A program made the position numbers and the translations under genes. Under the pieces are notes generated by a model. The model was not told where the DNA came from. It worked only from the letters and a program-made list of their open reading frames with translations, and did no database searches. Shown piece after piece: positions 9,470-63,033 of a stretch of DNA of 64,000 bases (position 1 is its first letter; each line of letters opens with the position of its first letter). The DNA comes from Candidatus Cloacimonadales bacterium (GTDB taxonomy: Bacteria; Cloacimonadota; Cloacimonadia; Cloacimonadales; JAFGVF01), in the NCBI GenBank assembly GCA_963677495.2, contig CAXXOU010000004.1:1056001-1120000 (forward strand). The letters run 5' to 3'.

Positions 9470-10210
9470 GTATCTCTACTTCGCTCAGGGTGACATACAC
9501 AGTGCCATTTGCAATGACTTACCGCATTTCAGGGAGTTTGTCGGCCTGATAAGGCAACGGACTTCCTGAAATGTACTTCGAAGTCGCATGTCCCTGATTT
9601 CGTTCTCGCGTCACGCTATCGCTGCAACGCAAGTCCGAAATTAACATACACAGTGCCATTTGCAACAACTTAGCTACTTTTATTGACCTTTCCACTCTCT
9701 TTTACTGCTCTATCTATCAACGCACTGTGCACGCACTGTGTCCCCACTGTGAAGGCACTGCCAACCCACTGTTTCACTGGGTGCACAGTGGGAAAACAGT
9801 GGGATGACTGCGATTTGCTGGATGGTTTAGTGAAAGCGAGAAGCAATACTACCTTGAAAATGGTCCTAAGACCTTTTCAATGGTGCTCTTGTAATGTAAA
9901 CCGATCCACTCTTGGTTGATTGAACCAGACCAAAAACCATTTATACGACCCCTTCTGGGTCGGATTTTTGTTGTATATCTAACCATAGGCTGCACCTATG
10001 GCTAATTAAACTTATACCTCTTTGAGGTAGGCATTATTCCAGCAACGCAATTCCGAGTTGTGTAACAAGACAAACCGACACAGTCGGTTAAGTCCATATA
10101 TGAACGCATCAACTGCGTAGATGCAACTGCAAGATGACTAAGGAAGAAGTGATTCGCAACGAAGTGTGAATCGCTAATTCCAGGAACTCGAAGTCTGATT
10201 CGTATTTCTC
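9470..10210. repeat. Mosaic of REP-like hairpin modules in the secA/skp divergent intergenic region
   Basis: Modules recur elsewhere: 9599-9638 ~ 33211, 33845, 58203(rc); 9851-9886 ~ 33716, 55073; 10069-10098 ~ 41574; 10106-10200 ~ 33119; local direct repeat ACATACACAGTGCCATTTGCAA at 9494 and 9645. Confidence 0.8.
9723..9801. repeat. 11-bp periodic inverted array (core CACTG/CAGTG)
   Basis: CACTG at 9723, 9734, 9745, 9756, 9767; CAGTG at 9786, 9797. Confidence 0.9.
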
Positions 10211-10498
10211 ATCCAAAAAGAGCATTCTCTATCAATTTTAGAATAACTGTTATATGATGATTTATAAATTATATACCATCTATTACCTAAAGTACTTTCT
10301 CTAACAATGTTCTCAAACTAATACATATCAATAAGAATACTAGCTGACATTGTAATTCTTAAACAAACATATTGGTCTTAAGATTGATACCGACTTTAGA
10401 ACGGTCTTATATATACATATAAAGTGTTGATATTTTTGTTTGACTAATTAGTCTTACTCCTAAAACTTGCGAAAATGTATTAAAATAGTGGAGGACTA

Positions 10499-11077
10499 AT
10501 GAAAAAATTAGTATTGATGCTGGTCTTAACAACTCTGTTAACGGTTGGCTTAGTAGCAAAATCTCAAGAGATAGCATATGTAGATATAGACGCAGTTATC
10601 ACACGTTGTAATGACACACAAGAAATCCAAAGAGCTTTTGATTTAGAACGCCAAGAGTGGGCAAATCAACTTACTGACCTTGAAAATGAAATTACAAGAA
10701 TGGAAACAGATTTCGAAACTCACAAACTTACTTACAGTGCTTCAGGACGTTCTGAACAGGAAAAGAAGATTGAAGATAAGAAAGCTGAATACAGAACAAT
10801 GGTTGAAAACTTCTTTGGTGAGAATGGAATTGCAGCTCAGAGATATCAGGAACTTGTAGAACCAGTTCAAAACAAGATTCTTGAAGTGATTCAAGACATT
10901 TCTATCCAGGAAAACTATTCATTAGTACTTAACGTTAGCGCCGGTGGCATACTTTATGCTACTCAAGAGATGGACATCACTGACATGGTTATCCAGAGAA
11001 TGGATGCTGATAGTGGTCAGATTGCTCCTGCTGCTACTGATGTACCTAAAGCTGATGACAAAGGCGGAAAGAAATAG
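10499..11077 (+). CDS. skp: OmpH/Skp periplasmic chaperone
   Basis: Signal peptide, IAYVD, coiled coil, ILYA...DITD; directly upstream of lpxD. Confidence 0.88.
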   Translation: MKKLVLMLVLTTLLTVGLVAKSQEIAYVDIDAVITRCNDTQEIQRAFDLERQEWANQLTDLENEITRMETDFETHKLTYSASGRSEQEKKIEDKKAEYRTMVENFFGENGIAAQRYQELVEPVQNKILEVIQDISIQENYSLVLNVSAGGILYATQEMDITDMVIQRMDADSGQIAPAATDVPKADDKGGKK

Positions 11078-12121
11078 ATGAAGAAATTCAGGCTTGAGAT
11101 TACACCGGAACTTATAGCTTCCCAACTTCCGGGGGAGTTGATACAGCGTAATGAAGTAACTTTGGATAATGTTGCTGAGCTCTTAGAAGCTAATGGTAAT
11201 TCTGTATGTTTTTTTGAGAATGATGCCTTTGCTTCTGACTTAAAAGTGACAAAAGCCGGACTTGTATTTGTTAAACAGGATTTTGATGTATCTATCCTTC
11301 CAAATACAAACCTGCTTAAAGTTGAGTATCCTTATGTCTATTTCATGATGTTAGTAAAAACATGGTTAAAACTCAGTAAGCCTGACTTCATGACTTCTAT
11401 TAGCGAAACAGCAGTTATTGCTAACTCTGCCAAGATCTCTGATAAAGTAGTTATTAAAGAGAATGTAGTGATTGGGCAAAATGTTGTAATAGATGACTAC
11501 ACAGTCATAGAAGCAAATTGCGTTATTATGGATGATGTGCAGATTGGTAAAAACTGTCACCTCTTCCCCAACGTGACAATCTATCAGGACTCAGTTTTGA
11601 TGAATGATGTTATTCTTCATGCCGGAGTTGTGATAGGTGCAGATGGATTTGGATATATTTATCACGAAGGTATTCAACAGAAAGTTCCACAAGTTGGAAA
11701 CGTGATTATCGAAGATAGTGTTGAAATTGGTGCTAATAGTTGTATTGACCGTGGAGCACTTGGAACCACACGAATCGGTAAACACACAAAGTTAGATAAC
11801 CTTGTTCAGGTTGGGCATAACGTACAGATTGGAGAAAATACTATGTTATGTTCACAAGTTGGCATTGCAGGTAGCACGAAAGTCGGTGACTTAGTGTATC
11901 TTGCAGGTCAAGTTGGAGTTGCTGATCATATCAGCATTGGTAATAATGTGAAAGTCGGAGCAAAATCGGGCATATCCGGAAATGTTGATAACGATAAGCT
12001 TATGTTCGGCATACCGGCCCGTGAATCCGGGGTAACTAAGAGAATTATGGCTTCACAACGTTACTTGCCTGAGTTAGTGAAATATTATAAAAAAGAACTG
12101 AAGAAAAAAGATAAAGAGTAG
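11078..12121 (+). CDS. lpxD: UDP-3-O-acylglucosamine N-acyltransferase
   Basis: Hexapeptide repeats, [24 protein letters not shown]. Confidence 0.96.
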
Positions 12122-12125
12122 TTTT

Positions 12126-13520
12126 ATGCAAGAACACAAACAAACAATCGGTGGGTCAATATCTTATACAGGTATTGGACTTCACACCGGAGAGATAACA
12201 ACTGTAACTTTTAAACCAGCTTCTCAGGATGATGGTATTGTATTCACAAGAATAGACATGCCAGACTCCCCTGAGATTCCCGCAGACATTGAACATGTTG
12301 TAGATATATCACGCGGTACTACTATTGGTATCGGTAAGGCGACTGTTTCTACAATTGAGCACGTTTTAGCTGCTATTAAAGGTCTTGATATTGATAATAT
12401 TAAAATCGAGATTAACGGACCTGAAGCACCTGTTGCTGATGGCTCAGCCATGCCTTTCCTTCAACTTCTTAAGCAAGTTGGAATAGTACAGCAGGATTCA
12501 ATTAGAGAATACTTTGAAATAGAGGAGCCTATCAGCTTCACGGCAGAAGAAGATAATGTAGATGTAGTGATTGTACCTTCAAGTGAACTTAAGGTTACTT
12601 TCCTCGTTGATTATCAGCACCCACTTCTTGGTACTCAATATACATGGATGCCTGATCTTAGTGTGTTTGAAAAAGAGTTTGCATCTTCAAGAACATTCTG
12701 CTTCGTGAAAGAGATTCTTATGCTCAAAGGTGCCGGACTCATCAAAGGTGGTTCCCTTGATAATGCTGTTGTTATCGGAGAACCGGATATTGACCCTGAA
12801 AAACTGGAAGAGCTCAGACAAGTATTCAACTTTGACGCTCCTATAGAGATTTCAAGTGAAGGTATTATCAACAACCAACCACTTCGTTATTACAACGAGT
12901 TTGTACGTCATAAAGTATTAGACCTTATTGGTGATATTGCCCTTCTCGGTGTGCCAATTAAGGGTCATATCCTAGCTGCTCGTTCAGGACATAAGACTAA
13001 TGTAGAGCTTGTTAAGAAACTTAGAAAGATTCAGAAGAAGCAACGTTTACAGAAAGAGTATCAGAAGAAGAGAACACAAAATGTAGTGTTTGATATCAAT
13101 GCGATAAAGCGAATACTACCTCATAGATACCCATTCCTATTCGTTGATAAGATTATTGAGTTTATCCCTGGTGAAAAGATTATCGGTATCAAGAACGTTA
13201 CAGCTAACGAAGAGTTCTTTAATGGTCATTTCCCGGGTGCTCCTGTAATGCCGGGTGTACTTATAATTGAAGCTATGGCTCAAACCGGTGGTATTATGCT
13301 TCTCAATAACCTTGAGAACCCACAAGACCACCTTGCAATGTTTGCTTCGATTGATAACGTTAAGTTTAGAAAACCTGTTTTACCGGGTGATACATTACGC
13401 TTTGAATTGAAAGTAATTTCACTCAAACGCTCATTAACCAAAATGCATGGTGACGCTTTTGTGGGTGACACAAAGGTATGTGAAGGCGACTTCCTCGCCA
13501 TGGTTGTAGATAGAAACTAA
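12126..13520 (+). CDS. lpxC-fabZ: Bifunctional LpxC/FabZ
   Basis: GIGLHTG, TIEH, HKVLDLIGD (LpxC) then LPHRYPFL, FNGHFPGAPVMPGVLIIEAMAQ (FabZ). Confidence 0.96.
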   Translation: MQEHKQTIGGSISYTGIGLHTGEITTVTFKPASQDDGIVFTRIDMPDSPEIPADIEHVVDISRGTTIGIGKATVSTIEHVLAAIKGLDIDNIKIEINGPEAPVADGSAMPFLQLLKQVGIVQQDSIREYFEIEEPISFTAEEDNVDVVIVPSSELKVTFLVDYQHPLLGTQYTWMPDLSVFEKEFASSRTFCFVKEILMLKGAGLIKGGSLDNAVVIGEPDIDPEKLEELRQVFNFDAPIEISSEGIINNQPLRYYNEFVRHKVLDLIGDIALLGVPIKGHILAARSGHKTNVELVKKLRKIQKKQRLQKEYQKKRTQNVVFDINAIKRILPHRYPFLFVDKIIEFIPGEKIIGIKNVTANEEFFNGHFPGAPVMPGVLIIEAMAQTGGIMLLNNLENPQDHLAMFASIDNVKFRKPVLPGDTLRFELKVISLKRSLTKMHGDAFVGDTKVCEGDFLAMVVDRN

Positions 13521-13529
13521 AGGAGAGTC

Positions 13530-14303
13530 ATGAATTACACAGTTCATCCTACTGCTATAGTTGATAAAGACGCGAAGATTGGAGAAGGTTGCAATATAGG
13601 TCCATATTGTATTATCGGACCTGATGTTGTGATGGGAAAGAATAACAACCTGCATTCACATGTGATTGTAAACGGTCCATCAGAAATGGGAGATGGAAAC
13701 AATGTATCTCCCTATGCTGTTATTGGTACCGACCCACAAGATCTTAAGTTCGACGGTTCTAAAACATACCTTAAGATTGGAGACAACAACAATATCAGAG
13801 AGTACGCCACTATCAACCGTTCAAACGGTCCTGAAGAAGCTACTGTTGTTGGTGATAATAACCTGATTATGGCCTATGCTCATATCGCTCATAATTGCCA
13901 GATTGGTAACAATATTGTGATTGCTAATGCAGTTAATTTTGCCGGTCATGTGATTGTTGATGACTTTGCGATTGTTGGCGGTGTAACTGCCGTTCATCAG
14001 TTCGTGAAGATTGGTAAGTATGCCTTCATCGGTGGTTGTTCTGCTGTTAAGAAAGATATTCCACCATTTGTAAGAGGACAAGGTAACCTCTTCGAAGTAC
14101 ACGGCTTAAACGGTGTTGGTCTTCTTAGAAAAGGCTTCTCCAAAGAGGAAGTATCAGGTCTTAAGAAAGTTTATAAACTATATTACAGAATGAATCTTAA
14201 TACTGCTCAAGCAACTGCTGAAGCTGAGAAGTTAGATCTTAGTGATGTTCAAAAAGAATTTGTAAACTTCGTAAAGAACTCAGAACGCGGAATTACTAAA
14301 TAA
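13530..14303 (+). CDS. lpxA: Acyl-ACP--UDP-GlcNAc O-acyltransferase
   Basis: PQDLKF, IREYATINR, HIAHNC, VHQF. Confidence 0.96.
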   Translation: MNYTVHPTAIVDKDAKIGEGCNIGPYCIIGPDVVMGKNNNLHSHVIVNGPSEMGDGNNVSPYAVIGTDPQDLKFDGSKTYLKIGDNNNIREYATINRSNGPEEATVVGDNNLIMAYAHIAHNCQIGNNIVIANAVNFAGHVIVDDFAIVGGVTAVHQFVKIGKYAFIGGCSAVKKDIPPFVRGQGNLFEVHGLNGVGLLRKGFSKEEVSGLKKVYKLYYRMNLNTAQATAEAEKLDLSDVQKEFVNFVKNSERGITK

Positions 14304-14322
14304 TACTATTTTAATATACATT

Positions 14323-14354
14323 AGAGTCCTCTCATTTTGAGTGGACTCTTTTTG
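14323..14354 (+). terminator. Rho-independent terminator after lpxA
   Basis: AGAGTCC...GGACTCT hairpin followed by T run. Confidence 0.75.
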
Positions 14355-14744
14355 TATCCCGATCATCCCTGATGGGGCTCTCAGCCAAATCTGAAACAGC
14401 TGAGTTACTCATGTCAATTCTAGCTCCTGAACACGATTGGCTTCCATGTTATAGCTCTATCGAGCTATGTGCAAGCGAGGGCACTTGCACTACGATTGTA
14501 CTGCAACTCTCCTGAGTTGCTGTGCCGACATGGTCGGCAGTTTCCACTGACCGAAACTTAGAAATCATACGTTCGACCGTTGAACTAAGTTTATGATTAC
14601 ACATGACAATATTAGCTTCTGAGTAAAGATTAGAGTGGTCGCTTCATATGTATCCTGTTCCCCATCCTGATCGGTGCAACATAGATGTAAAAATGTCATT
14701 TTGCTTGACACAAAATCAGGTTAAGATTTCTTAAAAACACTCTT

Positions 14745-14820
14745 GGGGCATTAGCTCAGCTGGGAGAGCACTACACTGGCAGTGTAGGGGTCATCGGTTC
14801 AAGTCCGTTATGCTCCACCA
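14745..14820 (+). tRNA. tRNA-Ala (anticodon GGC)
   Basis: GGGGCAT/ATGCTCC acceptor stem with G3-U70, CTACA-CTGGCAG-TGTAG anticodon arm, TTCAAGT T-loop, encoded CCA; TTGACA at 14705. Confidence 0.97.
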
Positions 14821-14826
14821 AGTTTT

Positions 14827-14850
14827 AAGCCATCTTCGGATGGCTTTTTT
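14827..14850 (+). terminator. Terminator after tRNA-Ala
   Basis: AAGCCATC-TTCG-GATGGCTT followed by T run. Confidence 0.85.
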
Positions 14851-14939
14851 ATTATATCCACCATGTAACTGTCGCTCAAGCTCAACCATTAAGAAGGTAC
14901 ATATCACTCCAATATCGGATGAATCAAATCATTGATATC

Positions 14940-15359
14940 TTATACAGCAGGTAACAGCTCATTCTCAACAGCCATTTTGATAGTAATAACCGGCAAATTA
15001 AGAGCAACAACATACTCCGGTGTTATTGTCTTTAGATCAACTTCGGGATAGGCTTTGTGCAGGTTATGCATCATTTTGATAAATACGTTGTAACCATTAT
15101 AAATAATGCCTTCACCGACTCTGATGTTGTTAAGCCTATTCGAATAATGTTTGATATCACTCTTGTAACTATCAGTGCAATTCTTATAAAACTTACTAAG
15201 ATTCTTGGTTTTAAGAGAAAAGTTCGAGTTATTCTTATTTTTTCTTGGTTTCACATAAGTTCGTGCTATAAGTGCATCACTCTGCGGATAGTAATAAAAT
15301 ACAAGTTTTCCGACTCTACCGTTCAAAGTCTTTGCTATCAAATCTAAATTTACTTTCAT
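14940..15359 (-). CDS. Small basic hypothetical protein (MKVNL..LNGRVGKLVFYY), possibly nucleic-acid binding
   Basis: GGAGG RBS before ATG 15359; Lys/Arg/Tyr-rich N-terminus. Confidence 0.7.
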   Translation of the reverse strand: MKVNLDLIAKTLNGRVGKLVFYYYPQSDALIARTYVKPRKNKNNSNFSLKTKNLSKFYKNCTDSYKSDIKHYSNRLNNIRVGEGIIYNGYNVFIKMMHNLHKAYPEVDLKTITPEYVVALNLPVITIKMAVENELLPAV

Positions 15360-15519
15360 TGTTTCCTCCAATTCCTTCTCAAAAAGGTTTTCGTTTAATA
15401 ATTACAGGCTATAGGCTTTTAGCTATCAGCTAAAAAACCTTCCTCTATAATTATATGTGTGAAAAATGAGAGATTCCGTGAAAAAGTATGCATTTTTTTT
15501 GAATAAAGTCTTCATTCCA

Positions 15520-15592
15520 CCCTTAGATTTCTCATGCCCCACTCTCGACCCTCCCTTGCAAACCCAAGGGAGAGCCAAGGGAGGGGCAAGGG
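15520..15592. repeat. 11-bp periodic inverted array (core CCCTTG/CAAGGG)
   Basis: CCCTTA 15520, CTCATG 15531, CTCTCG 15542, CCCTTG 15553; CAAGGG 15565, 15576, 15587. Confidence 0.85.
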
Positions 15593-15635
15593 AGGCTTCT
15601 GGATTTCAGGTTGACTTCCGGCAAGGTATTTGTTC

Positions 15636-15662
15636 TGTAAAAGCTTTGTAAAAGCTTACAAA
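15636..15662. repeat. Short 11-bp periodic palindrome (TGTAAAAGCT)
   Basis: TGTAAAAGCT at 15636 and 15647, followed by TACA. Confidence 0.6.
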
Positions 15663-15765
15663 ATATGCAATTAATTATGAATGTTTCCTCGAGAGTGATA
15701 TCAATCGATCCATTCTTATCTGCTTCTACGCTCCCTTTCAATTTTTACTCAACTTTTCTGGTTAC

Positions 15766-15850
15766 GTTGCTTATTACTTGTTTTTTTTCTTGGGCATTTA
15801 CTCAAGTATTGCTTAACTGTTTACCAAGGATTACCCAAGAGACTCTCAGG
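15766..15850. repeat. 11-bp periodic inverted array (core CTTG/CAAG)
   Basis: CAAG at 15803, 15825, 15836 and CAGG 15847; CTTG 15777, 15789; resembles 33391-33463. Confidence 0.7.
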
Positions 15851-16047: not shown

Positions 16048-16075
16048 CAAATATAACAAATCTACGATTAAACTT

Positions 16076-16501
16076 TTAATTTATCGCCCTTTTTTCTATA
16101 TCTTTCAAAGTCTCGAATCTAGATACCATAATTGATACGAATAATATTAGAACTACTACTATTGATATATACTCAAAAGCAACATTGTTTAACTCTATAG
16201 AACGAGACATATGAAACACAATAAACCACAAATAGAAAAAATAGTGCATAAATTTAACGGATGCTTTTTGAATAATTACCATCCTTATATCATGTTTGTG
16301 TATCCTGTTTCTATATGTAATTGCTATGATTGTTGCACTTATCCAAAAGGCAACGAAAACTACGATGTAAAAAGAACTAGGAATCAATGATTCTTCTAAT
16401 GCATTTGGATTATTCTTCAAAAAGACTCGAATAACAACCGTAACGATAACAAGGCCAATTAATTGTAGTGCAAATGGTAAGATTGTTTTCTTATTAATCA
16501 T
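16076..16501 (-). CDS. Hypothetical membrane protein, about 4 TM helices
   Basis: Four hydrophobic segments; GGAGG RBS. Confidence 0.75.
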   Translation of the reverse strand: MINKKTILPFALQLIGLVIVTVVIRVFLKNNPNALEESLIPSSFYIVVFVAFWISATIIAITYRNRIHKHDIRMVIIQKASVKFMHYFFYLWFIVFHMSRSIELNNVAFEYISIVVVLILFVSIMVSRFETLKDIEKRAIN

Positions 16502-31551: not shown

Positions 31552-31608
31552 AAATATAAAACAAAGATGAATGAGTGATTTGTCTCCTTTACATCACATC
31601 TATTCCCT

Positions 31609-31646
31609 GTTAGCTTGCCGTTAGCTTCCCGTTAGAAACACGTTAC
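31609..31646. repeat. 11-bp periodic array (core GTTAG)
   Basis: GTTAG 31609, 31620, 31631; GTTAC 31642; downstream ~70 bp resembles 58660-58730. Confidence 0.85.
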
Positions 31647-31776: not shown

Positions 31777-32253
31777 ATGAAAACAATACTATCGATATTC
31801 ATGCTGGGAATCTTATCACTCTCAGTGCTTTCAGCCAAAGAGACAAAGACAATCGAGATATTCTTTAAGAATAAACCACCATCAATCAAAACACTTTCTA
31901 AAGTGCTCCCAATGGTTAACAAATACAGTAAAGAGTACAAGATTTATCTAAATGAGATATACAGTCCTGAATCAGCTGACATCATCAAAGCCTATGGTTT
32001 ACCTACAACCCACTTCCCATTTGCAGTTGTTATTAATGGTAAATTCACTGCCAAGATTGATGGTAAAGAGATTGGATTTGTGCACTTCCCAAAATTCATG
32101 AATGGAATTGGTAGACATGAAGGCAACTGGTCACTGGAGATGCTTGAAGCAGCAATTAAGAATCCTAAACTTCTTGCAAATGAGAATAAGTTACCTGCAA
32201 TTGAAGAGCACGATGATCATGATGGAAATGAGCATGGCGGTTGCGAAGAGTAG
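31777..32253 (+). CDS. Hypothetical exported protein (thioredoxin-like?) with His/acid-rich tail
   Basis: Signal peptide; HFPFAVVING; C-terminal EEHDDHDGNEHGGCEE. Confidence 0.7.
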   Translation: MKTILSIFMLGILSLSVLSAKETKTIEIFFKNKPPSIKTLSKVLPMVNKYSKEYKIYLNEIYSPESADIIKAYGLPTTHFPFAVVINGKFTAKIDGKEIGFVHFPKFMNGIGRHEGNWSLEMLEAAIKNPKLLANENKLPAIEEHDDHDGNEHGGCEE

Positions 32254-32262: not shown

Positions 32263-33000
32263 ATGAAAAGAGTCCTTCTCATACTTAAACTCACAGGTGC
32301 TGTTCTACTTGGTTTTATTACATGGTTCATTGTAGCAATTCTCAAAGAGATGCGTTTGATGAAACGTTCTGTCTCTGAAACAGAGAAAGTGACTGATGAT
32401 GTTTTTGTTGTAAAGGACAGGTTTGTGAACCTGTTCCTGATTAAAAGCGATGAAGGTTATATCGCTATTGATTGCTGTCAGGATGAAGGGAACGTTACCA
32501 AGCAGCTAAACAGCCTGTATGTTAATCCCAAAGATGTTAAGCATATCTTCCTCACTCATTCTGATTATGACCATACAGGTGCAATAGACCTCTTCCCTAC
32601 TGCTGAGGTTCATATCTCCAAGAAGGAGCATTTATTCCTTAAAGGTGGTAAACGTACTTTTGGCTTTATCAAACTCGGTAAACCGAATGAACTCAATCGT
32701 GATTATAAGACCTTTGAGTCCGGTCAGATCTTTGAGATTGGTGAGAAGAGAGTTGAATGCATAGTAACACCGGGACATACATCCGGAAGTGCAAGCTTTA
32801 TAGTAGATGACAAGTACATCTTCACAGGTGATACTGTTTCCATCAGAGATAGTAAAATCACTGCCTTCTCTCGCTTAATATCAATGGATAATAAAGAGAA
32901 CCTGAAGTCAGTGGATACGATTAAGCAACTCATCAAAGCACGTGGGATCGAGTATGTGTTTACTGCTCATCATGGGTATAAGAAGATGCATAGAGATTAG
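32263..33000 (+). CDS. MBL-fold metallo-hydrolase
   Basis: THSDYDHTG, TPGHT, FTGD, AHHG. Confidence 0.9.
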   Translation: MKRVLLILKLTGAVLLGFITWFIVAILKEMRLMKRSVSETEKVTDDVFVVKDRFVNLFLIKSDEGYIAIDCCQDEGNVTKQLNSLYVNPKDVKHIFLTHSDYDHTGAIDLFPTAEVHISKKEHLFLKGGKRTFGFIKLGKPNELNRDYKTFESGQIFEIGEKRVECIVTPGHTSGSASFIVDDKYIFTGDTVSIRDSKITAFSRLISMDNKENLKSVDTIKQLIKARGIEYVFTAHHGYKKMHRD

Positions 33001-33390
33001 TAGCCACTGATTTCTCTGATTAATCAGATGATGTGTACTCCGAAGTACACGTCGAACTATTTGTAGGGGCTCAACATTTTGAGCCCATTTTTTCGATTAT
33101 ATGAGTGCTATATGGACTGCATCAACTATGTAGATGCAACTGCAAGATAACCAAGGAAGAAGTGAATCGCAGCGGAGTGTGATTTGCTAATTCCGGTACT
33201 CAAAGCCCATTTCGTTCTCGCGTCATGCTATCACTACAACGCAAGTCCGAGTCAATTCCTCCGAATTGCACCATTTGCAAGGTCTTTGACCATTCCAAAG
33301 GTACAAGTCTAATTGTCAATAGCAGAAGCTCGAGTCCCCCTACTCCCAGCAGTAATTCTTGATTCCATAATAGTATTCTCTAAACAACAA

Positions 33391-33463
33391 CTTGATCATT
33401 TCTTGGCATTTAACCCAAGGATTACCCAAGTGTTTCTCAAGGGTTTCTCAAGTGTCTCTCAAG
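33391..33463. repeat. 11-bp periodic inverted array (core CTTG/CAAG)
   Basis: CTTG 33391, 33402; CAAG 33416, 33427, 33438, 33449, 33460. Confidence 0.9.
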
Positions 33464-34049
33464 AATTACAGCTGAGGACCAGAGGGAAAGTAGAATCAGT
33501 AGATGCTATTACTATCGCTTTTAATCTGCCCTCTCACTCCTCTGCATTAATTATTAAGTTAAACTAATCTCTATCCATTCTAAAACCGTATCCAAATCCT
33601 ATTATTCGATAATAACATTTCAATAGGGTTTCAATAGGTGTCTCTTACCTGAGGGGTTGATGATTGTAGCAGGACGGATGACCGGGGAAATGAAACTGAT
33701 GAAGGATTGCATTCTACCTTGCGAATGGTCCTTAGACCTTCTCAATGGTGCTCTTAGGAAGAAGTGAATCGCAGCGGAGTGCCTGAGAAGCCTTAGCTTC
33801 AGCGTAGGTTCTTGATTTGCTAATTCCCGGTACTCTAAGCCCGATTCGTTCTCGCGTCATGCTATCGCTACAACGCAAAGTCCAAGAAAATCCCTCCGAT
33901 TTGCACCATTTGCAAGGTCTATGACCATTCCAAAGGTACAGGATAAAGTGTCCTATACCTGAAGCTCGAGTCCAAGCGAAACATGTCAAAAAATTTATCG
34001 AGACTTGCAATTCACTGCCAAAAAGACACACTCCCACAGATAGATTTCA

Positions 34050-34120
34050 CGTACCTGAAAGGTAGCCCCTCCCGTAGCTACCTACGGGAGGGCTACGGAT
34101 GGGCTACGCGAGACCTACGG
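34050..34120. repeat. 11-bp periodic inverted array (core CGTAG/CTACG)
   Basis: CGTAC 34050, GGTAG 34061, CGTAG 34073; CTACG 34082, 34093, 34104, 34115. Confidence 0.9.
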
Positions 34121-34229
34121 GAGGGGATCGCAGGTTTGGTAAAGATTTGGAGGAAAAAAACATTCATTTATTGACATGGAAAGAATAAGTAATATGGGTG
34201 GCATAAACCGATTTCAAAAAGGGGTATAA

Positions 34230-36048
34230 ATGACTGAATTACATAAAACAGACATCTATAAATATACAAGAAAAAGCGAATATGATTTGGAATATCGCTG
34301 ATATTATACAAGGAACCTTCAAACCACATCAATATGGATTAGTTATTCTGCCTTTTACTGTTTTAAAGAGATTGAATGATACTCTTATGCCTACTAAGGA
34401 TAAGGTTTTAGAGAAATTTGAAGAGATAAAACATTTGGAAGTTAAAAGTGGCTTTTTAGAGAAAGCTTCCGGGTACTCTTTCTATAATACGAGTAAGTTT
34501 ACCTTTGAGAATCTGGTGAATGATTCTGAGAATATTGAAGATAATTTCAAAGACTTTCTTAACGGTTTTCTCTGAGAATGTGCAGGATATCCTAAAGAAC
34601 TTCGAGTTTATGGGGAACCATAAAGAAGTTGATTGGCTCAACAAAGCATGAGGGACAAGCTGTTCTATGTGATTCAGGAGTTTAATAAACCTCAGTCTTA
34701 TTTAGGTGCTGATAAAATCACAACTGTTTGACATGGGATATGTCTTTTGAAGAGCTTGTGCGTAAGTTCTCCGAGAGTTATGATGAGGATGCAGGGACAG
34801 CACTTCACGAGTAGAGATATTATTTATACTATGACAGACCTGCTGGTCGCTGAAGATGCCGATGCCCTTACTCAAGAGGGAGTTGTGAAGACTGTCTATG
34901 ATATGGCGATGGGGAAACAAGGTCAGATGCTTACCTGTATGGAGGAACGCTTACGACAATTGGATGCAGATGCAGAGATTACCTCCTTTGGACAGGAGAT
35001 AAACCACGAGACTTACTCTATTGCTAAGTCCGATGCGATTATTAAGGGAAGTTCTGCTGAGAACATGCGTCTGGGAGATACTCTTGCCAATGACCAGTTT
35101 TTGCAGGCTTTGAGTTTGATTATGTTATCTCTAACCCTCCCTTTGGAAGAGATTGGAAATCAGCGAAGAAAACTGTAGATACTGAACATAAGAAGGGCGA
35201 AGACGGAAGATTTGCTCCCGGACTACCAAAAAATATCAGATGGTCAGATGCTCTTTACGATGAATGGAATTAAGAAAACTGAAAGATTCCGGTAAGATGG
35301 CTATTATTCATAACGGCTCCCCTCTTTTTACAGGAGATGCAGGCTCAGGTCCTTCCGAGATTAGAAGGTACATAATAGAAAATGACTGGTTGGAAGCGAT
35401 TGTACAGCTACCTAATGATGTGTTTTATAATACAGGGATTAGTACCTATATTTGGGTAATCTCGAAAGAGAAACCGAGTCATAGAATTGGTAAGATCCAG
35501 CTAATCGATGCCTCCAAGATGTTTGAGAAACGCAGGAAAGTCGATTGGGAATAAACGAGTTGATATAAACAGTTGCTTGCAGAAAAGCGATTGTGCAAGC
35601 CTTTGGTGATTTCACTGATAAGCTCTATGAGTATGATAATGGTAAAACAGGTTGAATCACGCATCTTTGAGAATGAGGATTTTGGTTATTACAAGATTGT
35701 GGTGGAGTCTCCTGAACTTGATGAACAGGGCAATAAGGTTCTGAAAAAGGGGGAAACCGGTTTGCAGATACGAAGAAAAGAGACACTGAGAATGTGCCGA
35801 TGCAGAAGAGTCGTGATGAAAGAGAAGTGATTGAGGAATACTTCCAAAAAGAGGTTGTTCCCTTTAATCCCGATGCCTGGGTTGACTATAAGAAGACCAA
35901 GCTTGGTTATGAAATCCCCTTTAACCCGTCCACTTCTATAAGTATGTAGCTCCTGAACCATCTGAGAAGATAGCGGAACGCATCAGTGCTCTGGAAACAG
36001 AACTGATGGCATCTCTTAAAACCCTCTTCTCCGATGAGGAGGGAATAA
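34230..36048 (+). pseudogene. hsdM: Type I R-M methyltransferase HsdM, multiply frameshifted as written (probably sequencing error)
   Basis: Fragments across frames: IWNIAD..YGLVILPFTVLKR, GQHFTSRDII, SNPPFG (35130), IHNGSPLFTGDAGSG, FYNTGISTYIWV, KLGYEIPF. Confidence 0.88.
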
Positions 36049-37332
36049 TGCCTCGCAAGATGAAAGATAGCGGAATTGAATGGATTGGAGAGATTCCGGA
36101 AGGGTGGAGTGTTACCAGAAATAAAAACTCTGTTTCGTGAAAGAAAAGAGGTAACTGTAAATGGAGATGATGACTATGACCTTTTAGCAGTATCAGAGTA
36201 TTACGGAGTAGCTAGAAAAGCTGATGTAATAAAATCAGATGAATTTCTGACAAGAGCTAAGTCATTAACAGGATATAAGGTTTGTAGAATTAATGACTTT
36301 GCAATGAACATTATGTTAGCTTGGAAAAAAGCTTATGGGATAAGCTCTTATAATGGAATAGTTAGCCCATCATATGCTGTGTTTGAACCTACAATGAAAT
36401 ATTGTACCCAATACTATCACTACTTATATAGAACTACATTATATTCTGGTTTATTTAAAAGTAACTCTACTGGAATTATTGATTCAAGATTGAGATTGTA
36501 TCCAGATGTATTTCTTTCTCTTTCCTCGCATTATCCCCCTCTCCCTACCCAAACCCGAATAGCAGAATACTTAGATCGAAAGGTGGCATTGATAGATTCG
36601 ATAATTGAGAAGACAAAACAGACAATTGAGGAGTATAAGGCATATAAACAGTCACTGATAACTGAGGTTGTTACCAAAGGACTCAATAAAGATGCCAAGA
36701 TGAAGGACTCCGGGATTGAATGGATTGGGGAGATTCCGGAGGGGTGGGAAGTGAGAAGAACGAAGTACTTATCTCCTGTGTTAAGAGGAGCAAGCCCTCG
36801 ACCGATTCAGAGTGAGAAGTATTTCGATGTAAATGGAAGCTATGTCTGGACTCGTATAGCTGATGTCTCAAAGTGTACAAAATATTTTGATAAAGATTCT
36901 GAATATATGTCTGAACTAGGTGAAAGTAAATCAGTAAAATTGGAACCGGGAGAATTATTCCTTAGTATTTGTGCTACTGTAGGTAAACCAATTATTACTA
37001 AAGTCAAGTGTTGCATCCATGATGGTTTTGTGTACTTCCCTTTATTGAAACCCAAGTATGTGGATTTACTATTTTATATTTTTGAGAATGGTTCATGTTT
37101 CGGTGGACTTGGAAAAATGGGAACCCAGCTAAATCTTAATACAGAAACTGTAGGCGGTATTCATTTACCTATCCCAGAAGATAATGAACTAGGAAGAATA
37201 ATAAATCGATGTGAACGGATTAGTATTGATATCTTAGAAATTATCGAAAAGAAGATGAGATTTATCACAGAGCTTGAGAGTTATAAGAAGTCACTTATAT
37301 ATGAAGTGGTAACAGGTAAGAAAGAGGTGTAG
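36048..37332 (+). CDS. hsdS: Type I R-M specificity subunit; true start ATG 36048 with one +1 frameshift near 36120
   Basis: MKDSGIEWIGEIPEGW occurs at 36060 (different frame) and again mid-protein; two TRDs; KSLIYEVVTGK end. Confidence 0.9.
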
Positions 37333-48893: not shown

Positions 48894-49028
48894 TAAATAA
48901 AAGTCCACCTTGTGTGGGCTTTTTTATAACTATTACTTTTGCTAAATAAAAGTCCACCTTGTGTGGGCTTTTTTTATAACTACCACTTTGGTGAATAAGT
49001 AAAAAGTCCACTTTCTAGTGGACTTTTC
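48894..49028. terminator. Three tandem bidirectional terminator hairpins
   Basis: AAAAGTCCAC...GTGG(G/A)CTTTT at 48899, 48948, 49002. Confidence 0.8.
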
Positions 49029-57929: not shown

Positions 57930-58019
57930 ATAACTCCTTACATATACCGAATATGTTATTTGTAATAAGCATATTTGGTTTGTCAAATGGTTTATCTAAT
58001 TGCCATTTGTTTGTTTGCG

Positions 58020-58500
58020 AAACCCTCGGCTTTCAATATATCACTTACATCCTTACAGGGCTCTCTAATTTTGGGGATTATTTACCCTACACTCACGTAT
58101 AGGGCTATTAAACAGTAGCTCCTTCCGAGCTAAAACCTAGTAATCATCTGTACCTTTTGAATGGTCCAGATCTTCAGAAGAGTGCACTTCGAAGGAACTA
58201 ACTCAGACTTGCGTTGCAGCGTTAGCGTGGTGCAAGAACGAAACAGACTTCGAGTACAGGAATTCGACCTGCACCACAACGAAGTGTGGGGCGGGAATAA
58301 ATCACAATTCCTGTCACCTTGTGAGTTTACGAGCTTAGGGAAATGGAATTGTCTGTTTATGTCATATTCTACCCCGTTTGGGTCGTTGTTTTTTGGGGAT
58401 TTACAACTATGCATTGCATACATAGCTACTCACATTTAATCACTCTGTGATTATTCCTGCTTCTTCCCACTTTCACAAGCTCGCGTCCATTGGAGTTTGC
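58020..58500. repeat. Mosaic of REP-like hairpin modules
   Basis: Reverse copy of 9599/33211 module at 58203-58242; copies of 55073, 55250 and 55439 modules. Confidence 0.85.
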
Positions 58501-58607
58501 TTCTGTTTGAGAATCATACTTCGAAACTTACTTAATATATTTATATCCTCGTTGACTACCTGCTATAAATCAGTTTCTTATCTCTATCTTATTCCGCATG
58601 CAACACA

Positions 58608-58662
58608 CGTTAGCTCCCCGTTAGCTCCCCGTTAGCTCCCCGTTAGATACCCGTTACAACGG
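58608..58662. repeat. 11-bp periodic array (core CGTTAG)
   Basis: CGTTAG 58608, 58619, 58630, 58641; CGTTAC 58652; inverted AACG 58658. Confidence 0.92.
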
Positions 58663-58786
58663 ATGGGAATTGGATTGGGTGCAGATAGCAAAGAAATGCA
58701 AACTCAATTTCCAATATGAGAGGGCACTCAAACTTGTTATCTACTCCTATTCCAGATACACATAAATAAGAGGATAATATTAATAG

Positions 58787-58815
58787 TTGACATAGTTATA
58801 TATTTATTGTAGTTT
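58787..58815 (+). promoter_or_regulatory. Sigma70-type promoter
   Basis: TTGACA-N17-TAGTTT upstream of the OMP gene. Confidence 0.55.
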
Positions 58816-58884
58816 TGAAATGTCTGTATAATATTCAATCAGTTAATCATAACTATAGAGGACACTTAGATATTGGAGGAGATA

Positions 58885-59496
58885 ATGAAAAAGGTAGTTC
58901 TGATAATAGGTTTCATCTTTTTAACTGCACTCTTGTTTTGCGGCCATGAAGGTTGTTTCTTGAAGGGTGGTATTAACCTTACTACAGCAACCGGAGATTA
59001 TAGTGAAGTCTCAGGCATTGTTTCAGGAAAACCCACAGGAAGTCATTTAAACTATCAAGTGGCAGGATATAGCCAGATTCCATTGAAGAAAGACGATTTA
59101 TACTGTGGTATAGGTTTACGGTTCAATACAAAATCCCTAAATTATTCAAAACGTGCTTACAACTATGAAGGAGAAATTGAAAAGCATACTGTTAACTTGG
59201 AAAGCTATGCCTTGGAAGTACCTTTAGACTTAATCTGGTACCTACATCACAATTATGGTATATCATTTGGTTTATCCTATTCATTCCCATTAGAAATTGG
59301 TATTGAAGCAGGAGATTCGTGGGACGATAAATATAACAGTTCTCTTAATGTTGAAATAGGGACTAAGTACCACTACAAAAGAAGTATTGTTGAGATAAGG
59401 TATCTACACGAGCTATTAAATCATTATACAAAAAATTATAAGGCTGAGTTGTTTAGAAGGCAAGTTATGCTGAATATTGGTTTTAAGTTATTTTAG
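58885..59496 (+). CDS. Outer-membrane beta-barrel (porin/PorT-like) protein
   Basis: Signal peptide, KGGIN, LEVPL, C-terminal LNIGFKLF. Confidence 0.75.
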   Translation: MKKVVLIIGFIFLTALLFCGHEGCFLKGGINLTTATGDYSEVSGIVSGKPTGSHLNYQVAGYSQIPLKKDDLYCGIGLRFNTKSLNYSKRAYNYEGEIEKHTVNLESYALEVPLDLIWYLHHNYGISFGLSYSFPLEIGIEAGDSWDDKYNSSLNVEIGTKYHYKRSIVEIRYLHELLNHYTKNYKAELFRRQVMLNIGFKLF

Positions 59497-59503
59497 TTGA
59501 AAA

Positions 59504-59526
59504 AGGGGATTCGCAATGAATCCCCT
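59504..59526. terminator. Bidirectional terminator between convergent genes
   Basis: AGGGGATTC-GCAAT-GAATCCCCT. Confidence 0.8.
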
Positions 59527-59548
59527 GTAATATATAGTTTATGATAAC

Positions 59549-61459
59549 TTATTCGCTATCAAGTTCATCTTTAACTGCTTTAAGTGCATCTTCCACAGAT
59601 AAAGCACCTAAGTCACCTTTTGTATGTCTGCGAACAGAGACTGTACCGTTCTCTTTCTCTTTGCCACCTGCGATGAACATATAAGGTATCTTCTTCATCT
59701 CAGCTTCACGAATCTTATAACCGATTCTTTCATCTCTCATATCGATATCAGCTCTGATTCCTGCTTGTAAAAGCTTATCCTGAATCTCTTTCGCATAATC
59801 AATATACTGATCAGAGATAGGTAAAACCTGAACCTGAACCGGGCATAACCAAACAGGGAAATTACCTGCATGGTACTCGATAAGAGTTCCGAAGAATCTC
59901 TCAATAGAACCAAGTAGTGCTCTATGCAACATGAAAGGTCTATGTGGCTGGTTGTCAGCACCGATGTACTCCATATCAAAACGAGTAGAAAGGTTGAAAT
60001 CGAACTGGATAGTTGTGCACTGCCAAGAACGATTAAGAGCATCTTTGATCTTAATATCAATCTTAGGACCGTAGAAAGCGCCACCACCTTCATCGACTTT
60101 ATATTCGAGTCCGGCTTTCTCAATGGACTTACGAAGTGACTCTGTTGCTTTCTCCCAATCAGCGTCTTCTCCAACTGATTTCTCTGGCTTAGTTGAGAGA
60201 TAGATATCCATATCTTTAAAGCCGAACTTCTTGAGAATATTCAATGAGAAGTCGATAAGTCTCTCCACTTCCCCATCAAGCTGTTCCGGAGTACAAATGA
60301 TATGAGCATCATCTTGTGTGAAACCACGAACACGCATAAGACCATGAAGTGTACCAGAACGTTCATAGCGATACACTGTCCCGAGTTCACCAAGTCTAAG
60401 TGGTAATTCTCTATAACTACGCTTTGTAGAGTTATAGATAGCAATATGGAAAGGACAGTTCATTGGCTTAAGATAATAATCCTGACCTTCTACTTCGATA
60501 GCTGAGAACATGCCTTCATTATAGAAACCTAAATGACCACTTGTTTCCCAAAGAGTAGATTTACCAATATGTGGAGTATAAACAAGTTTATAACCTGATT
60601 TGATGTGTTCCTCTTTCCAGAATGACTCGATCAAATGACGCATCATAGCACCATTAGGATGCCAGAGAATGAGTCCTGCACCTATATCATCAGATACAGA
60701 GAAAAGGTCTAACTCTTTACCGAGTTTTCTATGATCTCTTTTCTTAGCTTCTTCAAGATTATTCAGATAAACTTTGAGTTCTTTTTTACTTGGGAAGCTG
60801 ATACCATAGATACGTTTGAGCATCTTATTCTTCTCATCACCACGCCAATAAGCACCTGAAGTTTTGAGAAGCTTAACAGCTTTGAGTAAACCTGTATTCT
60901 GCATATGTGGACCACGACAAAGGTCTACAAACTTATCTTGTTTGTATACTGAGATAGTCTCTTCTTCAGGAATCTCACTTAAGATTTCCACTTTGTAAGG
61001 TTCATCCATCTCTTGGAACATCTTAAGAGCTTCATTACGAGGTAACTCTTCACGTGTATATGCATGCTTGCCTTTCGCAATCTCAAGCATCTTTTTCTCT
61101 ATCTTCTCAAGGTCAGCTTCAGTGAAAGCTTCATCTATATCAAAGTCATAATAGAAACCGTTCTCGATAGCTGGTCCGATTGTAACTTTCACGTTCGGGA
61201 AAAGTTCCTGAACAGCTTGAGCCATAATATGAGCTGAACTATGCCAGAATATCTCCGGTCCTTCGTCACTCTTGAAAGTAATAATACTAACTGTGGAATC
61301 CTCTTCAATCATTTCAGAAAGGTCACACAATTTATCATTTATTCTAGCAGCAAGTGCTACTCTAGCTAAACCTTCACTAATATCAAGAGCTACATCATGA
61401 GCACTAACCGCCCCTTCAAATTCCCTGATTGAGCCATCAGGTAAAGTAATCTTTAACAT
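59549..61459 (-). CDS. thrS: Threonine--tRNA ligase
   Basis: TGS domain, DLCRGPH, KPMNCP, RGFTQDDAH, FYGPKID, HRALLGSIERF. Confidence 0.98.
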   Translation of the reverse strand: MLKITLPDGSIREFEGAVSAHDVALDISEGLARVALAARINDKLCDLSEMIEEDSTVSIITFKSDEGPEIFWHSSAHIMAQAVQELFPNVKVTIGPAIENGFYYDFDIDEAFTEADLEKIEKKMLEIAKGKHAYTREELPRNEALKMFQEMDEPYKVEILSEIPEEETISVYKQDKFVDLCRGPHMQNTGLLKAVKLLKTSGAYWRGDEKNKMLKRIYGISFPSKKELKVYLNNLEEAKKRDHRKLGKELDLFSVSDDIGAGLILWHPNGAMMRHLIESFWKEEHIKSGYKLVYTPHIGKSTLWETSGHLGFYNEGMFSAIEVEGQDYYLKPMNCPFHIAIYNSTKRSYRELPLRLGELGTVYRYERSGTLHGLMRVRGFTQDDAHIICTPEQLDGEVERLIDFSLNILKKFGFKDMDIYLSTKPEKSVGEDADWEKATESLRKSIEKAGLEYKVDEGGGAFYGPKIDIKIKDALNRSWQCTTIQFDFNLSTRFDMEYIGADNQPHRPFMLHRALLGSIERFFGTLIEYHAGNFPVWLCPVQVQVLPISDQYIDYAKEIQDKLLQAGIRADIDMRDERIGYKIREAEMKKIPYMFIAGGKEKENGTVSVRRHTKGDLGALSVEDALKAVKDELDSE

Positions 61460-62749
61460 CTATTTCTCCTGTTTATATTTCTTTGCTAATTTTTCTTCAA
61501 TATCTTTTGCTGCTTGATTGAGAGCTTCCATAGGGTCAATTAATCCATTAATAACTCTTTCAAGCACTTGTTCTTCCAGGTCTTTTCTTGCATTATACCA
61601 TTCGGCAAACTGAGGTTCTGTTGTTGCAAATTGCAACTGACCGTAAACCTGTGCAAGCGATTCATTGCCTTCAAGCATACCTTTTATGGTATCTGTTTCT
61701 AAGGCACTCTTTCGTACCGGCATATAATTAGTCAATTTTGACCATTTAGCTGTTGCTTCTGTATCAGAGAACCACTTGATAAATTCCCAAGCAGCTCTTT
61801 CTCTTTCAGTGATTCCACTTTTGAAGATAGCAACATTGGTACCACTAATAATATTCTTCTTAGTTCTGTAGTGAGGAATCGGTGCCATACCCATGTTAAA
61901 GAGGAACTTTTGTTTCTTCATAAACACGATAGAAACAGAGGAACCTTCATACATACCAACTTTCTCAGCTAAGAAGTCATTTTGACCTTCGAAACCGGAA
62001 ACAGTATAAACGCTCTTGTCTTCATTCAATAAAGTACAAATGAAATCAAGAGCTTCACCTCCGGCGGGAGAGTTAAATGCAGGGGTTAAACCATCTTCTT
62101 GCATGATTGAACCACCGGCTTGAACAAGTAAGTTCTCGAATTGCCAGGCACTGACATTCATGTTTGTACCATAAGTATCAGTTACGCCATCACCATCGAG
62201 GTCTTTAGTAAGTTTATTGCAATAATGTCTAAAGTCTTCCCAAGTCTCAGGAGGAGTATTAGGGTCTAAACCATTTCTAATAAAAGCATCTTTATTATAA
62301 TAGAGAAGTCGTACGCTCTTATTGAAAGGCATAGAGTAAAGCTTTCCGTTTAAAGTATTTGAATGGATAAAGACTGGGAATATATCCTGCATATCTTCAT
62401 CGGTCATCTCCGGATCATTAGCAATCATATTATCAAGGTTAACAAGAACATCACCTTCAACAAAGTTTGCAGTCCAGGACTCAAAAACCTGAGCTACATC
62501 CGGTTGCTTATTAGCTTGGATAGACGCCATCAACTTCTGAGATAAAGCCTGATAGTTCCCTACAGATATAGATCTGACAAATATACTATCTTGGCTCATG
62601 TTAAAATCAAGTACAAGCTCGTTTAAAGCCTCTCCTAAAGGTCCACCCATTGCATGCCAGAAGATAATCTCAGTCTTTGCACTTTTAGTTTTTTGGCTAC
62701 AACCGAGCATAAGCCCAACCAATACTAGTAGGTATATTATCTTTCTCAT
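61460..62749 (-). CDS. ABC transporter substrate-binding lipoprotein (UgpB/sugar family)
   Basis: LMLG-C lipobox, FWHAM, PFNKS..LYYNKD, PETW. Confidence 0.9.
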   Translation of the reverse strand: MRKIIYLLVLVGLMLGCSQKTKSAKTEIIFWHAMGGPLGEALNELVLDFNMSQDSIFVRSISVGNYQALSQKLMASIQANKQPDVAQVFESWTANFVEGDVLVNLDNMIANDPEMTDEDMQDIFPVFIHSNTLNGKLYSMPFNKSVRLLYYNKDAFIRNGLDPNTPPETWEDFRHYCNKLTKDLDGDGVTDTYGTNMNVSAWQFENLLVQAGGSIMQEDGLTPAFNSPAGGEALDFICTLLNEDKSVYTVSGFEGQNDFLAEKVGMYEGSSVSIVFMKKQKFLFNMGMAPIPHYRTKKNIISGTNVAIFKSGITERERAAWEFIKWFSDTEATAKWSKLTNYMPVRKSALETDTIKGMLEGNESLAQVYGQLQFATTEPQFAEWYNARKDLEEQVLERVINGLIDPMEALNQAAKDIEEKLAKKYKQEK

Positions 62750-62952
62750 TTCTTCTCCATTAGTTTACATTATAATCAACTTGCTAATAATTATCAGAAT
62801 AATCTCCAGTCAAATAATTTTTCTGTTGAGATATAAGGGCATTTACATATTATATTTATTCAATACAGAGATTTCTAGTAGTTCCCAACAATTGAAAGAG
62901 ACTTTTTACTACCAATTTACAGTAGGAAACCTTACAGCAATGTGCTAAATAA

Positions 62953-63033
62953 CCACGTGCAAACCACGGGTTATCCACGCTCAAACCACGCGAGCCGTGG
63001 TCAACCCGTGGTTTACACGTGGTTAACCCGTGG
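62953..63033. repeat. 11-bp periodic inverted array (core CCACG/CGTGG), 4+4
   Basis: CCACG 62953, 62964, 62975, 62986; CGTGG 62996, 63007, 63018, 63029. Confidence 0.95.

Follow-up and report, generated by a model that had tools for sequence, protein, structure and literature searches.

Arrays of short words phased at 11 bp form a multi-family class of intergenic repeats in a Cloacimonadales genome and may serve as docking tracks for a small DNA-binding protein

Why should a short word recur every 11 bp in the intergenic DNA of a bacterial chromosome and then, in many cases, continue in the opposite orientation? The question is raised by a 64,000-nucleotide stretch of the genome of a Candidatus Cloacimonadales bacterium (contig CAXXOU010000004.1, positions 1,056,001 to 1,120,000; hereafter the window, numbered from its first letter), in which an earlier note had described about ten such arrays. 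As developed below, these arrays belong to a large set of dispersed, multi-copy repeats and are most likely docking tracks for a small DNA-binding protein, as judged from their phasing, their conservation, their distribution and the genes that they accompany.

The reality of the phasing was assessed by counting every array in which one 5-mer recurs three times at a fixed lag, lags 6 to 16 being compared. In the window, lag 11 gave 8 arrays and lags 6–10 and 12–16 gave none, as did each of 20 window shuffles. In the whole genome (3.41 Mb, 37% G+C, four contigs, of which C1, C2 and C4 are cited below; the prefix G000 denotes this genome) the same test recovered 275 arrays at lag 11 and 1–51 at other lags, lag 7 being second with 51, against 1–6 arrays in the shuffled genome (3 at lag 11). 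When four recurrences were demanded, 145 arrays remained at lag 11 and 20 at lag 7, with 0–3 elsewhere and none in the shuffles. Spacing is strict: 769 of 851 distances between successive identical cores are exactly 11 bp, 7 are 10 bp and none is 12 bp, while 54 distances of 8 bp correspond to the centre of one repeat family (family A, below). The longest exact run is three units in 128 arrays, four in 71, five in 72 and six in 2. A reverse-complement core lies within 40 nt of the array end in 202/275 cases, compared with 9–25 when the flanks are shuffled, and 269/275 arrays fall outside open reading frames (ORFs) of at least 150 amino acids (aa). Because the counts of lags, spacings and inverted cores all lie far above the shuffles, both the phasing and the orientation flip are genuine and well outside what chance would give, the phasing being peculiar to lag 11. 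The claims of the earlier note that the arrays are periodic at 11 bp and intergenic, and that most of them flip, were thus upheld, and so were its two safeguards, namely that shuffled controls should yield few arrays (0–6 here) and that periods should not be spread evenly over neighbouring lags.

The same note had described elements sharing an architecture and not a sequence, with cores specific to each locus. This did not survive a listing of the arrays, which fall into about a dozen recurring multi-copy families with conserved flanks, not single-locus words, in elements of 90–195 bp, a dispersed organisation that the note had not considered; every array of the window was assigned to one of them, and each of its cores is a member of such a family. 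The best represented is family A (CACTG/CAGTG), with 65 full elements of about 195 bp that share 73–87% identity, followed by family C (CCACG/CGTGG; 36 loci, 95 bp), family B (CCAAG; 24–28 copies, about 155 bp), family E (CGTTAG; 17–20 copies), family D (TCCCG; 11–21 copies) and families F (AGTAAG) and I (TATCAAG), with 12 copies together. Family G (CCCTA), family J (CTACG; 2 copies) and several smaller groups complete the set. Terminal inverted repeats of 10–15 bp bound the elements of families B (CTCTCAGCAGTAAT), D (CTCTTTCAAT) and F/I (CCCATTCAAT) and are not evident in A or E.

Within families, it is the words that are held most tightly. Over the 65 copies of family A, word columns are 98.9% identical, the other array columns 90.5% and the flanks 48.8%, and word columns are also the most conserved ones in families B, D, E and F. 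Families F and I are built on a common scaffold, consisting of CCCATTCAAT, a variable stretch, GTTATCCACAACTTGTGACTAA, one inverted word, GCTTTG, 4–5 direct words and ATTGAATGGG, and differ in that the word (AGTAAG in one, ATCAAG in the other) has been switched jointly, in the lone inverted copy as well as in every direct one. Together with the patchy folding described further below, these patterns of column conservation and joint change show that the constraint acts on the words themselves and that only some families form hairpins. About a dozen families thus carry the same strict word array with a changed word, which points to a shared reader or reader family and not to chance, since the one-turn array is kept while the word itself changes.

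Among the genomes sampled, the array class is restricted to one genus. The A element was found in 3/3 other genomes of the genus and in 0/37 genomes that represent 25 genera elsewhere in the order; its matches in genome G003 often lie at contig ends. Cross-genome array counts, made in 400-kb samples, gave 40 lag-11 arrays for this genome, 20 for the sister species (G001), which carries additional words such as TTATGCAAG, and 1 for each of two other genera of the family. Those other genera show a small excess at other lags, as in G005, with 12 arrays at lag 9. None of 17 array sites is syntenic in the sister species, compared with 40/60 random positions. A special tie of arrays to synteny break-points was nevertheless rejected: among intergenic gaps of at least 250 bp, 10/46 array-free and 1/18 array-bearing ones are syntenic in the sister species, and because long array-free gaps are also mostly non-syntenic, non-synteny is mainly a property of long intergenic regions.

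What, then, might read the words? The earlier note had suggested landing pads for a DNA-binding protein family of diversified specificity, and a candidate for such a family, its identity as reader being a matter of inference, emerged from clustering the ORFs of the genome: a 22-member family of paralogs of about 150 aa that has no Pfam match. One member, the putative array binder of the window, is encoded on the minus strand at 14940–15371 (143 aa) and starts 193 bp from the array at 15564; the window ORFs at 16076–16501, 31777–32253 and 58873–59496 are outside the family. A lag-11 array occurs within 1.2 kb upstream of 7/22 paralog genes, with six different words that include the rare J and I words and the CAAGGGAG word of the window. 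In addition, one paralog subfamily has heptad arrays within about 300 bp upstream in 4/5 members examined, whereas two members of other subfamilies that were examined have no flanking arrays. These heptad arrays, of many different units (3–18 copies), stand on both sides of the genes of that subfamily (G000:C1:774500–775800, locus L002; C4:781800–783750, locus L137) and account for at least part of the 51 lag-7 arrays of the genome.

The pairing of paralog and array extends beyond the genus. Paralog matches number 23 in this genome, 11 in the sister species, 0–3 in the array-poor G004 and G005, which represent other genera of the family, and 9–13 in some other families of the order. Two genomes from such families, G013 and G014, were informative. 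In four sampled loci of G014, arrays have periods of 9 and 8 bp and one lies within about 420 bp upstream of 4/7 paralog genes, two further paralog genes having arrays 1.5–4.5 kb away; a clean flip is seen in GGTTGAG x4 followed by CTCAACC x4–5. In G013, dense clusters of heptad and 11-bp arrays are found directly upstream of paralog genes, eight arrays abut the start of one paralog, and in a 20-kb locus 11/12 heptad rows lie within 700 bp of its two paralogs. Short-unit arrays (7, 8, 9 or 11 bp) therefore precede paralog genes in three Cloacimonadales families. Since related genomes flip with 9-, 8- and 7-bp units (e.g. G014 L129:16542–16630 and G013 L131:10051–10591), the argument of the earlier note that 11 bp matters as one helical turn is weakened; units of 7, 8 and 9 bp in sister lineages fit a lineage-specific protein footprint.

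Searches with the paralog itself returned little that is familiar. At E ≤ 0.001 it has relatives in 412 representative clusters among 1.84 billion proteins, while searches of Pfam, PHROGs and, by sequence, the PDB were blank, and a word-index homolog search retrieved no proteins beyond those of this genome. Its confidently predicted structure (predicted local distance difference test score, pLDDT, 82.6) comprises three short strands followed by five helices. In a VIA structural search, about 18 of the 50 listed rows are ribbon-helix-helix binders (among them TraM, CopA, PutA, Arc, omega, ParG and NikR, with Z = 2.9–4.3 over residues 49–111), so that the modelled protein possibly has a ribbon-helix-helix fold, which we treat as a lead and not a finding.

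We infer from these data that the arrays are building blocks of dispersed non-coding repeats, which make up a superfamily restricted to the genus, and that a cooperatively binding small protein reads their phased words on duplex DNA; we give this explanation an even chance of being right. The superfamily comprises no fewer than ten families, with about 270 arrays in 3.4 Mb; an element has 3–6 copies of a family-specific 5–9-bp word at 11-bp spacing, as a rule at least one inverted copy, and in some cases short inverted repeats at its termini. The elements would have multiplied through intergenic DNA in the manner of repetitive extragenic palindromes (REPs) and bacterial interspersed mosaic elements (BIMEs), or of MITEs (miniature inverted-repeat transposable elements), and the protein, encoded elsewhere, would bind one word per binding unit, following the logic of iteron and centromere systems such as ParR-parC, the omega heptads and the ParG boxes. 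A single inverted copy might act as a dimer-type nucleation site, and the best candidate for the reader would be the paralog family, whose own genes are preceded by short-unit arrays. Reading by a protein is favoured because the phasing is strict across independent families, the words are conserved, the F/I word changed jointly and some arrays are direct only; also because the arrays are intergenic, families B and F standing mostly between divergent genes (15/24 and 7/10 copies), and some lie upstream of paralogs, and because paralog copy number is highest in array-rich genomes.

Several observations weigh against this explanation. The association with paralogs, which the earlier note had proposed to look for by clustering cores and comparing neighbouring genes, proved modest, in that recurring families and the paralog link were both found, but the 7/22 paralogs with an upstream lag-11 array must be set against a roughly estimated background of about 13% of genes. 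Paralog loci L004, L011 and L135 have no array, and most dispersed arrays, including those at 6/7 window loci, do not lie beside a paralog gene. The paralogs may simply occupy repeat-rich variable islands, in which case the association could be indirect. As to the fold, Foldseek found nothing in the PDB at E ≤ 0.001 with the paralog model, and the best VIA score was Z = 4.3, the ribbon-helix-helix rows being below the trust level of the tool. Finally, folding with RNA parameters favours the strand that has the regular arm 3' in families B (20/24), D (10/12) and F (10/10), and weakly in A (44/65), an advantage of one strand that, in B, D and F, hints at a strand-specific hairpin.

A broader version of the docking explanation, rather doubtful at present, would be a two-part system of the Cloacimonadales consisting of fast-diversifying proteins of about 150 aa, possibly ribbon-helix-helix-like, and cognate arrays whose units measure 7, 8, 9 or 11 bp according to lineage and whose words are particular to the paralog. 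These would first have been operators before the paralog genes and, in this genus, would have escaped as dispersed repeats, bringing the proteins to hundreds of places between genes. If true, the genome would be furnished throughout with protein landing pads that are addressed by word.

The most resilient alternative, though we hold it to be somewhat unlikely, is that the elements are non-autonomous, of MITE type or of the type of REPINs (REP-derived hairpin elements), their words being binding sites for a trans-acting transposase and their period reflecting transpososome assembly, with no host function. It is consistent with multi-copy families that have conserved boundaries, with the terminal inverted repeats of B, D and F/I, with the restriction to a genus whose sister species uses different words, and with the location in non-syntenic intergenic DNA. 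Also, a published MITE of another bacterium of the Fibrobacterota-Chlorobiota-Bacteroidota (FCB) group contains, according to the part of its description considered here, a 23-nt tandem array (PMC4596501).

The genomic setting of the arrays speaks to this alternative in both directions. In intergenic regions, REPs are combined with array elements and other repeats into mosaics, as expected of such elements, and REP hairpin blocks beside the window arrays (9598–9638, 9846–9890, 10106–10181, 33158–33305, 33711–33952 and 58203–58243) recur elsewhere in the genome as tandem units around Y1_Tnp genes that resemble REP-associated tyrosine transposases (RAYTs). The genome has 14 Y1_Tnp matches and at least 7 RAYT-like genes, each flanked by its own REP hairpins, some in tandem units of 97–125 bp (e.g. 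G000:C2:349900–351100 and C4:1048000–1049150). The array elements were rejected as cognate REPs of a RAYT, however, because the 7 RAYT-like loci inspected are flanked by other REPs and never by arrays on both sides; the sole RAYT-like gene near an array element (C4:1048444–1049124) has its A element upstream only, at about 110 bp. Clustering of multi-copy ORFs identified IS21-like, IS3-family, IS110 and IS200-like insertion sequences, none of which is an autonomous element with array-type ends; the ends of the IS3-family and IS21-like elements differ from those of the arrays. The IS21-like element, with 16–17 identical copies, has 23-bp terminal repeats of its own, and three or four of its copies interrupt A elements. 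The IS3-family element is present in six identical copies (G000:C2:141822–143059 and five others; loci L006, L016 and L017) encoding an orfA of 144 aa and an orfB of 262 aa, and 6/6 copies are inserted about 24 bp past the final CCAAG of a B element and show a GAC duplication, a placement that looks like the target preference of REP-seeking insertion sequences. One IS110-family copy adjoins a truncated C element. IS110-family copies at G000:C2:338061–339400 and C4:1492830–1498012 carry a ATTGTGGATAA...TTATCCACAAT hairpin at one end.

Further points may be set against this alternative. No consistent target-site duplication was seen in the flanks of families B, C, D and F, which were inspected by eye and without empty sites for comparison, since the loci are not syntenic in the sister species. 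With respect to local GC skew, families B (13/24), D (6/12), E (9/20) and F (7/10) are randomly oriented, so that no replication-strand bias is apparent in these, and the weak bias of family A (44/65) is confounded with gene orientation. The A copies are old, as judged from their overall identity, and yet nearly invariant in their words, which suggests constraint on each copy.

Do the arrays act instead through pairing of a single strand? When the window arrays were folded as single-stranded DNA and compared with shuffles, three elements folded far beyond them, those of family C (62950–63044, z = −6.3), family A (9642–9836, z = −3.4) and family J (34050–34125, z = −3.0). The long imperfect palindrome proposed for most elements in the earlier note is real in these three, but both GTTAG arrays (31603–31645, z = −0.8, and 58608–58660, z = −0.1), the B-like array at 33385–33470 (z = −0.7) and the array region at 15535–15600 (z between −0.1 and −1.0) have no significant fold. 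The structured-RNA or cruciform alternative that accompanied that proposal accordingly suits some elements and not others. In its fuller form it would have the arrays act as single-stranded hairpins, as RNA (small RNA, leader or RNase target) or as DNA (cruciform or lagging strand), with 11 nt corresponding to A-form geometry and several pairing registers available, and we regard it as unlikely.

In its favour, the family C palindrome is held in register, with 73.7% of cells paired and at most 41.2% when slid, the in-register hairpin having been counted in place of an implausible RNAalifold consensus. In families F/I the helix of the terminal inverted repeats is 94.7% paired, and two pairs of the stem have changed on both sides in 5/12 sequences. 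The strand preference of B, D and F mentioned above, and the fact that the array side of family A points toward a gene start in 49/65 copies, are of the same tendency. However, the covariation of family C is not above shuffles (40 of 500) and the F/I change is a single evolutionary event. In families B, E and F one arm has many perfect words while the opposite arm has one copy or degenerate copies, so that most words are left without a partner, and because several direct-only arrays lack a significant hairpin altogether, pairing is not the common denominator of the class. Signals of a transcribed element are likewise lacking: promoter and terminator counts in the arrays were not above shuffles, one trivial 5-bp stem inside a C element apart; Rfam at gathering thresholds matched two tRNAs only in the whole window, and at E-value thresholds the regions 9290–10500 and 33000–34260 gave sub-threshold microRNA-type chance rows or nothing.

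Least probable of all, and to be regarded as a remote prospect, is that the arrays are DnaA oligomer tracks, comparable to the 11-bp-phased low-affinity sites of oriC and nucleated by pairs of perfect boxes, an idea rejected for the arrays since their units resemble the box no more than decoys do (over the consensuses of 16 word groups the mean best match is 5.06 of 9, against 4.79 ± 0.31 for decoy 9-mers, a fraction of 0.21 of the decoys being at least as good), and disfavoured for the window families in that the words are wholly different between families and box pairs are absent from all window elements. What had spoken for it is that the perfect box TTATCCACA, which also flanks dnaA, occurs 154 times in the genome against about 42 expected, and that an inverted pair of boxes stands directly beside a lag-11 array at about 68 loci of families G, K, L and F/I (e.g. 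C1:46918–46938, C1:203237 and C4:693264). Only this species has amplified the box-pair elements; a 400-kb sample of G001 contains 1 and those of G004 and G005 contain 0, and the excess of boxes could affect DnaA titration. A plasmid-type initiator for iterons, Rep3_N, had no match in the genome.

The window itself is ordinary chromosome, encoding secA, topA, lpxD/C/A, alaS, dnaG, rpoD, thrS and a type I restriction system, and T9SS (type IX secretion system) sorting domains are present in its proteins, in keeping with a member of the Cloacimonadota, as are the nearest Atlas clusters of one protein. Tandem Repeats Finder made ten period-11 calls in it, all intergenic (9719–9772, 15564–15595, 15636–15657, 31603–31635, 33427–33463, 33618–33638, 34082–34125, 58608–58656, 62951–62992 and 62995–63034). 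Between these calls and direct reading, most sites listed in the earlier note were recovered as arrays, three of them being reduced to two-unit repeats. The first element (9642–9836, plus strand) belongs to family A; a conserved tail of 75 nt is followed by five CACTG at 11 bp (9723–9771), an offset copy, inverted CAGTG words up to 9801 and a terminal GCGATTTG. It is abutted by a REP-containing module (9478–9641) outside the 11-bp class, bounded by a 21-nt direct repeat and including the REP hairpin at 9598–9638; a 35-nt block of this module corresponds to the 97-bp tandem units around the RAYT-like Y1_Tnp gene at G000:C2:350415–350978.

Upstream of the paralog gene, on the plus strand, the array at 15552–15595 consists of one inverted CCCTCCCTTG and three direct CAAGGGAG at 11 bp, in a CCCTC/GAGGG context common to families G, K, L and J. 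It is followed by two weak items, a plus-strand repeat of two units (TGTAAAAGCTT, 2.0 copies) with a partial inverted copy at 15636–15657, and a degenerate CTTG...CCAAG fragment of family B type at 15766–15850, with a single pair of CCAAG 11 bp apart, a BLAST depth of about 3 and no Tandem Repeats Finder call. The third of the reduced sites, at 33618–33638 (plus strand), is also a two-unit repeat (TTTCAATAGGG, 1.9 copies), and its motif recurs upstream of an E array at C1:735818. Another dispersed repeat, with about 60 genomic matches, lies at 14400–14610, just upstream of tRNA-Ala.

The remaining elements are arrays, all but the last on the plus strand. Family E is represented twice, by a direct array of three CGTTAG and a degenerate fourth unit (31603–31645) and by 4.5 copies of CGTTAGCTCCC with a degenerate inverted copy, CCCGTTACAACGGATGGG (58608–58660; 17 aligned copies). 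The B-like array at 33385–33470, which has about 16 related copies, is composed of CTTG words, two CCAAG and three to four TCTCAAG at 11 bp. In the family J array (34050–34125), one inverted CCCTCCCGTAG and a short loop precede four CTACG at 11 bp, and the unstranded family C element (62950–63044) is a 95-nt near-palindrome of four CCACG followed by four CGTGG at the same spacing. The hsdM gene (34231–36075) of the type I restriction system looks broken up: the sole call, situated between the J array and hsdS/hsdR, is a 143-aa N6_Mtase piece (34747–35178). Just after tRNA-Met, at 48894–48989, a 49-bp unit with a terminator-like hairpin is duplicated in tandem.

Should the paralogs be the readers of these words, they would constitute a natural, diversified, array-based form of DNA addressing, and would offer a way into gene control and the organisation of the genome in a phylum that is uncultured and frequent in anaerobic digesters. 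In practical terms, the repeats are markers of non-syntenic DNA between genes, they draw in insertion sequences, and short-read assemblies break at them.

How do the arrays compare with known systems? The statement of the earlier note that no named element class fits them agrees with Rfam and with the full-text literature searched, in which no description of such arrays was found; the passages searched of a survey paper on REPs make no mention of Cloacimonadota or of tandem structure. Interspersed repeats of bacteria are usually single hairpins or transposon remnants. Like REPs, BIMEs and REPIN-RAYT systems, the present elements are short, non-coding, multi-copy and intergenic, often palindromic, arranged in mosaics and targeted by insertion sequences, but a REP is a single hairpin of 20–40 bp, whereas here there is a strict array of 11-bp-spaced words that does not flank RAYT-like genes on both sides. 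The BrickBuilt MITE of Porphyromonas gingivalis, by the portion of its description used here, includes a 23-nt minisatellite with leader and tail inside a small intergenic MITE, and resembles the present elements in carrying a tandem array within a small, multi-copy, species-limited intergenic repeat with inverted-repeat ends in a host of the FCB group; by the same portion, a comparison of descriptions only, it differs in that its 23-nt unit is spacerless and no flip is described (PMC4596501). The arrays of this genome, set beside that partial account, have an 11-bp unit made of a conserved word and a variable spacer, comprise many word families and mostly flip.

Closer parallels in geometry are found among protein-bound arrays. 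The low-affinity DnaA sites of oriC have an 11-bp period, and the likeness extends to two opposed arrays and, in some families, to perfect DnaA boxes beside the array; in contrast to oriC, the array words here have no significant likeness to the DnaA box and vary by family. Among iteron and centromere systems, parC of plasmid R1 presents 11-bp iterons to ParR, the omega protein binds 7-bp heptads in direct and inverted orientation, and ParG recognises tetramer boxes. The present arrays likewise consist of iteron-type phased direct repeats with inverted copies, their short words being held at a fixed phase and specific to each system, and some stand immediately upstream of the presumed binder's gene. 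The known systems are limited to one or two arrays next to their plasmid operon, whereas about 270 arrays are scattered here over a chromosome as repeat families, and the candidate protein, a putative binder, is one without a recognised ribbon-helix-helix signature.

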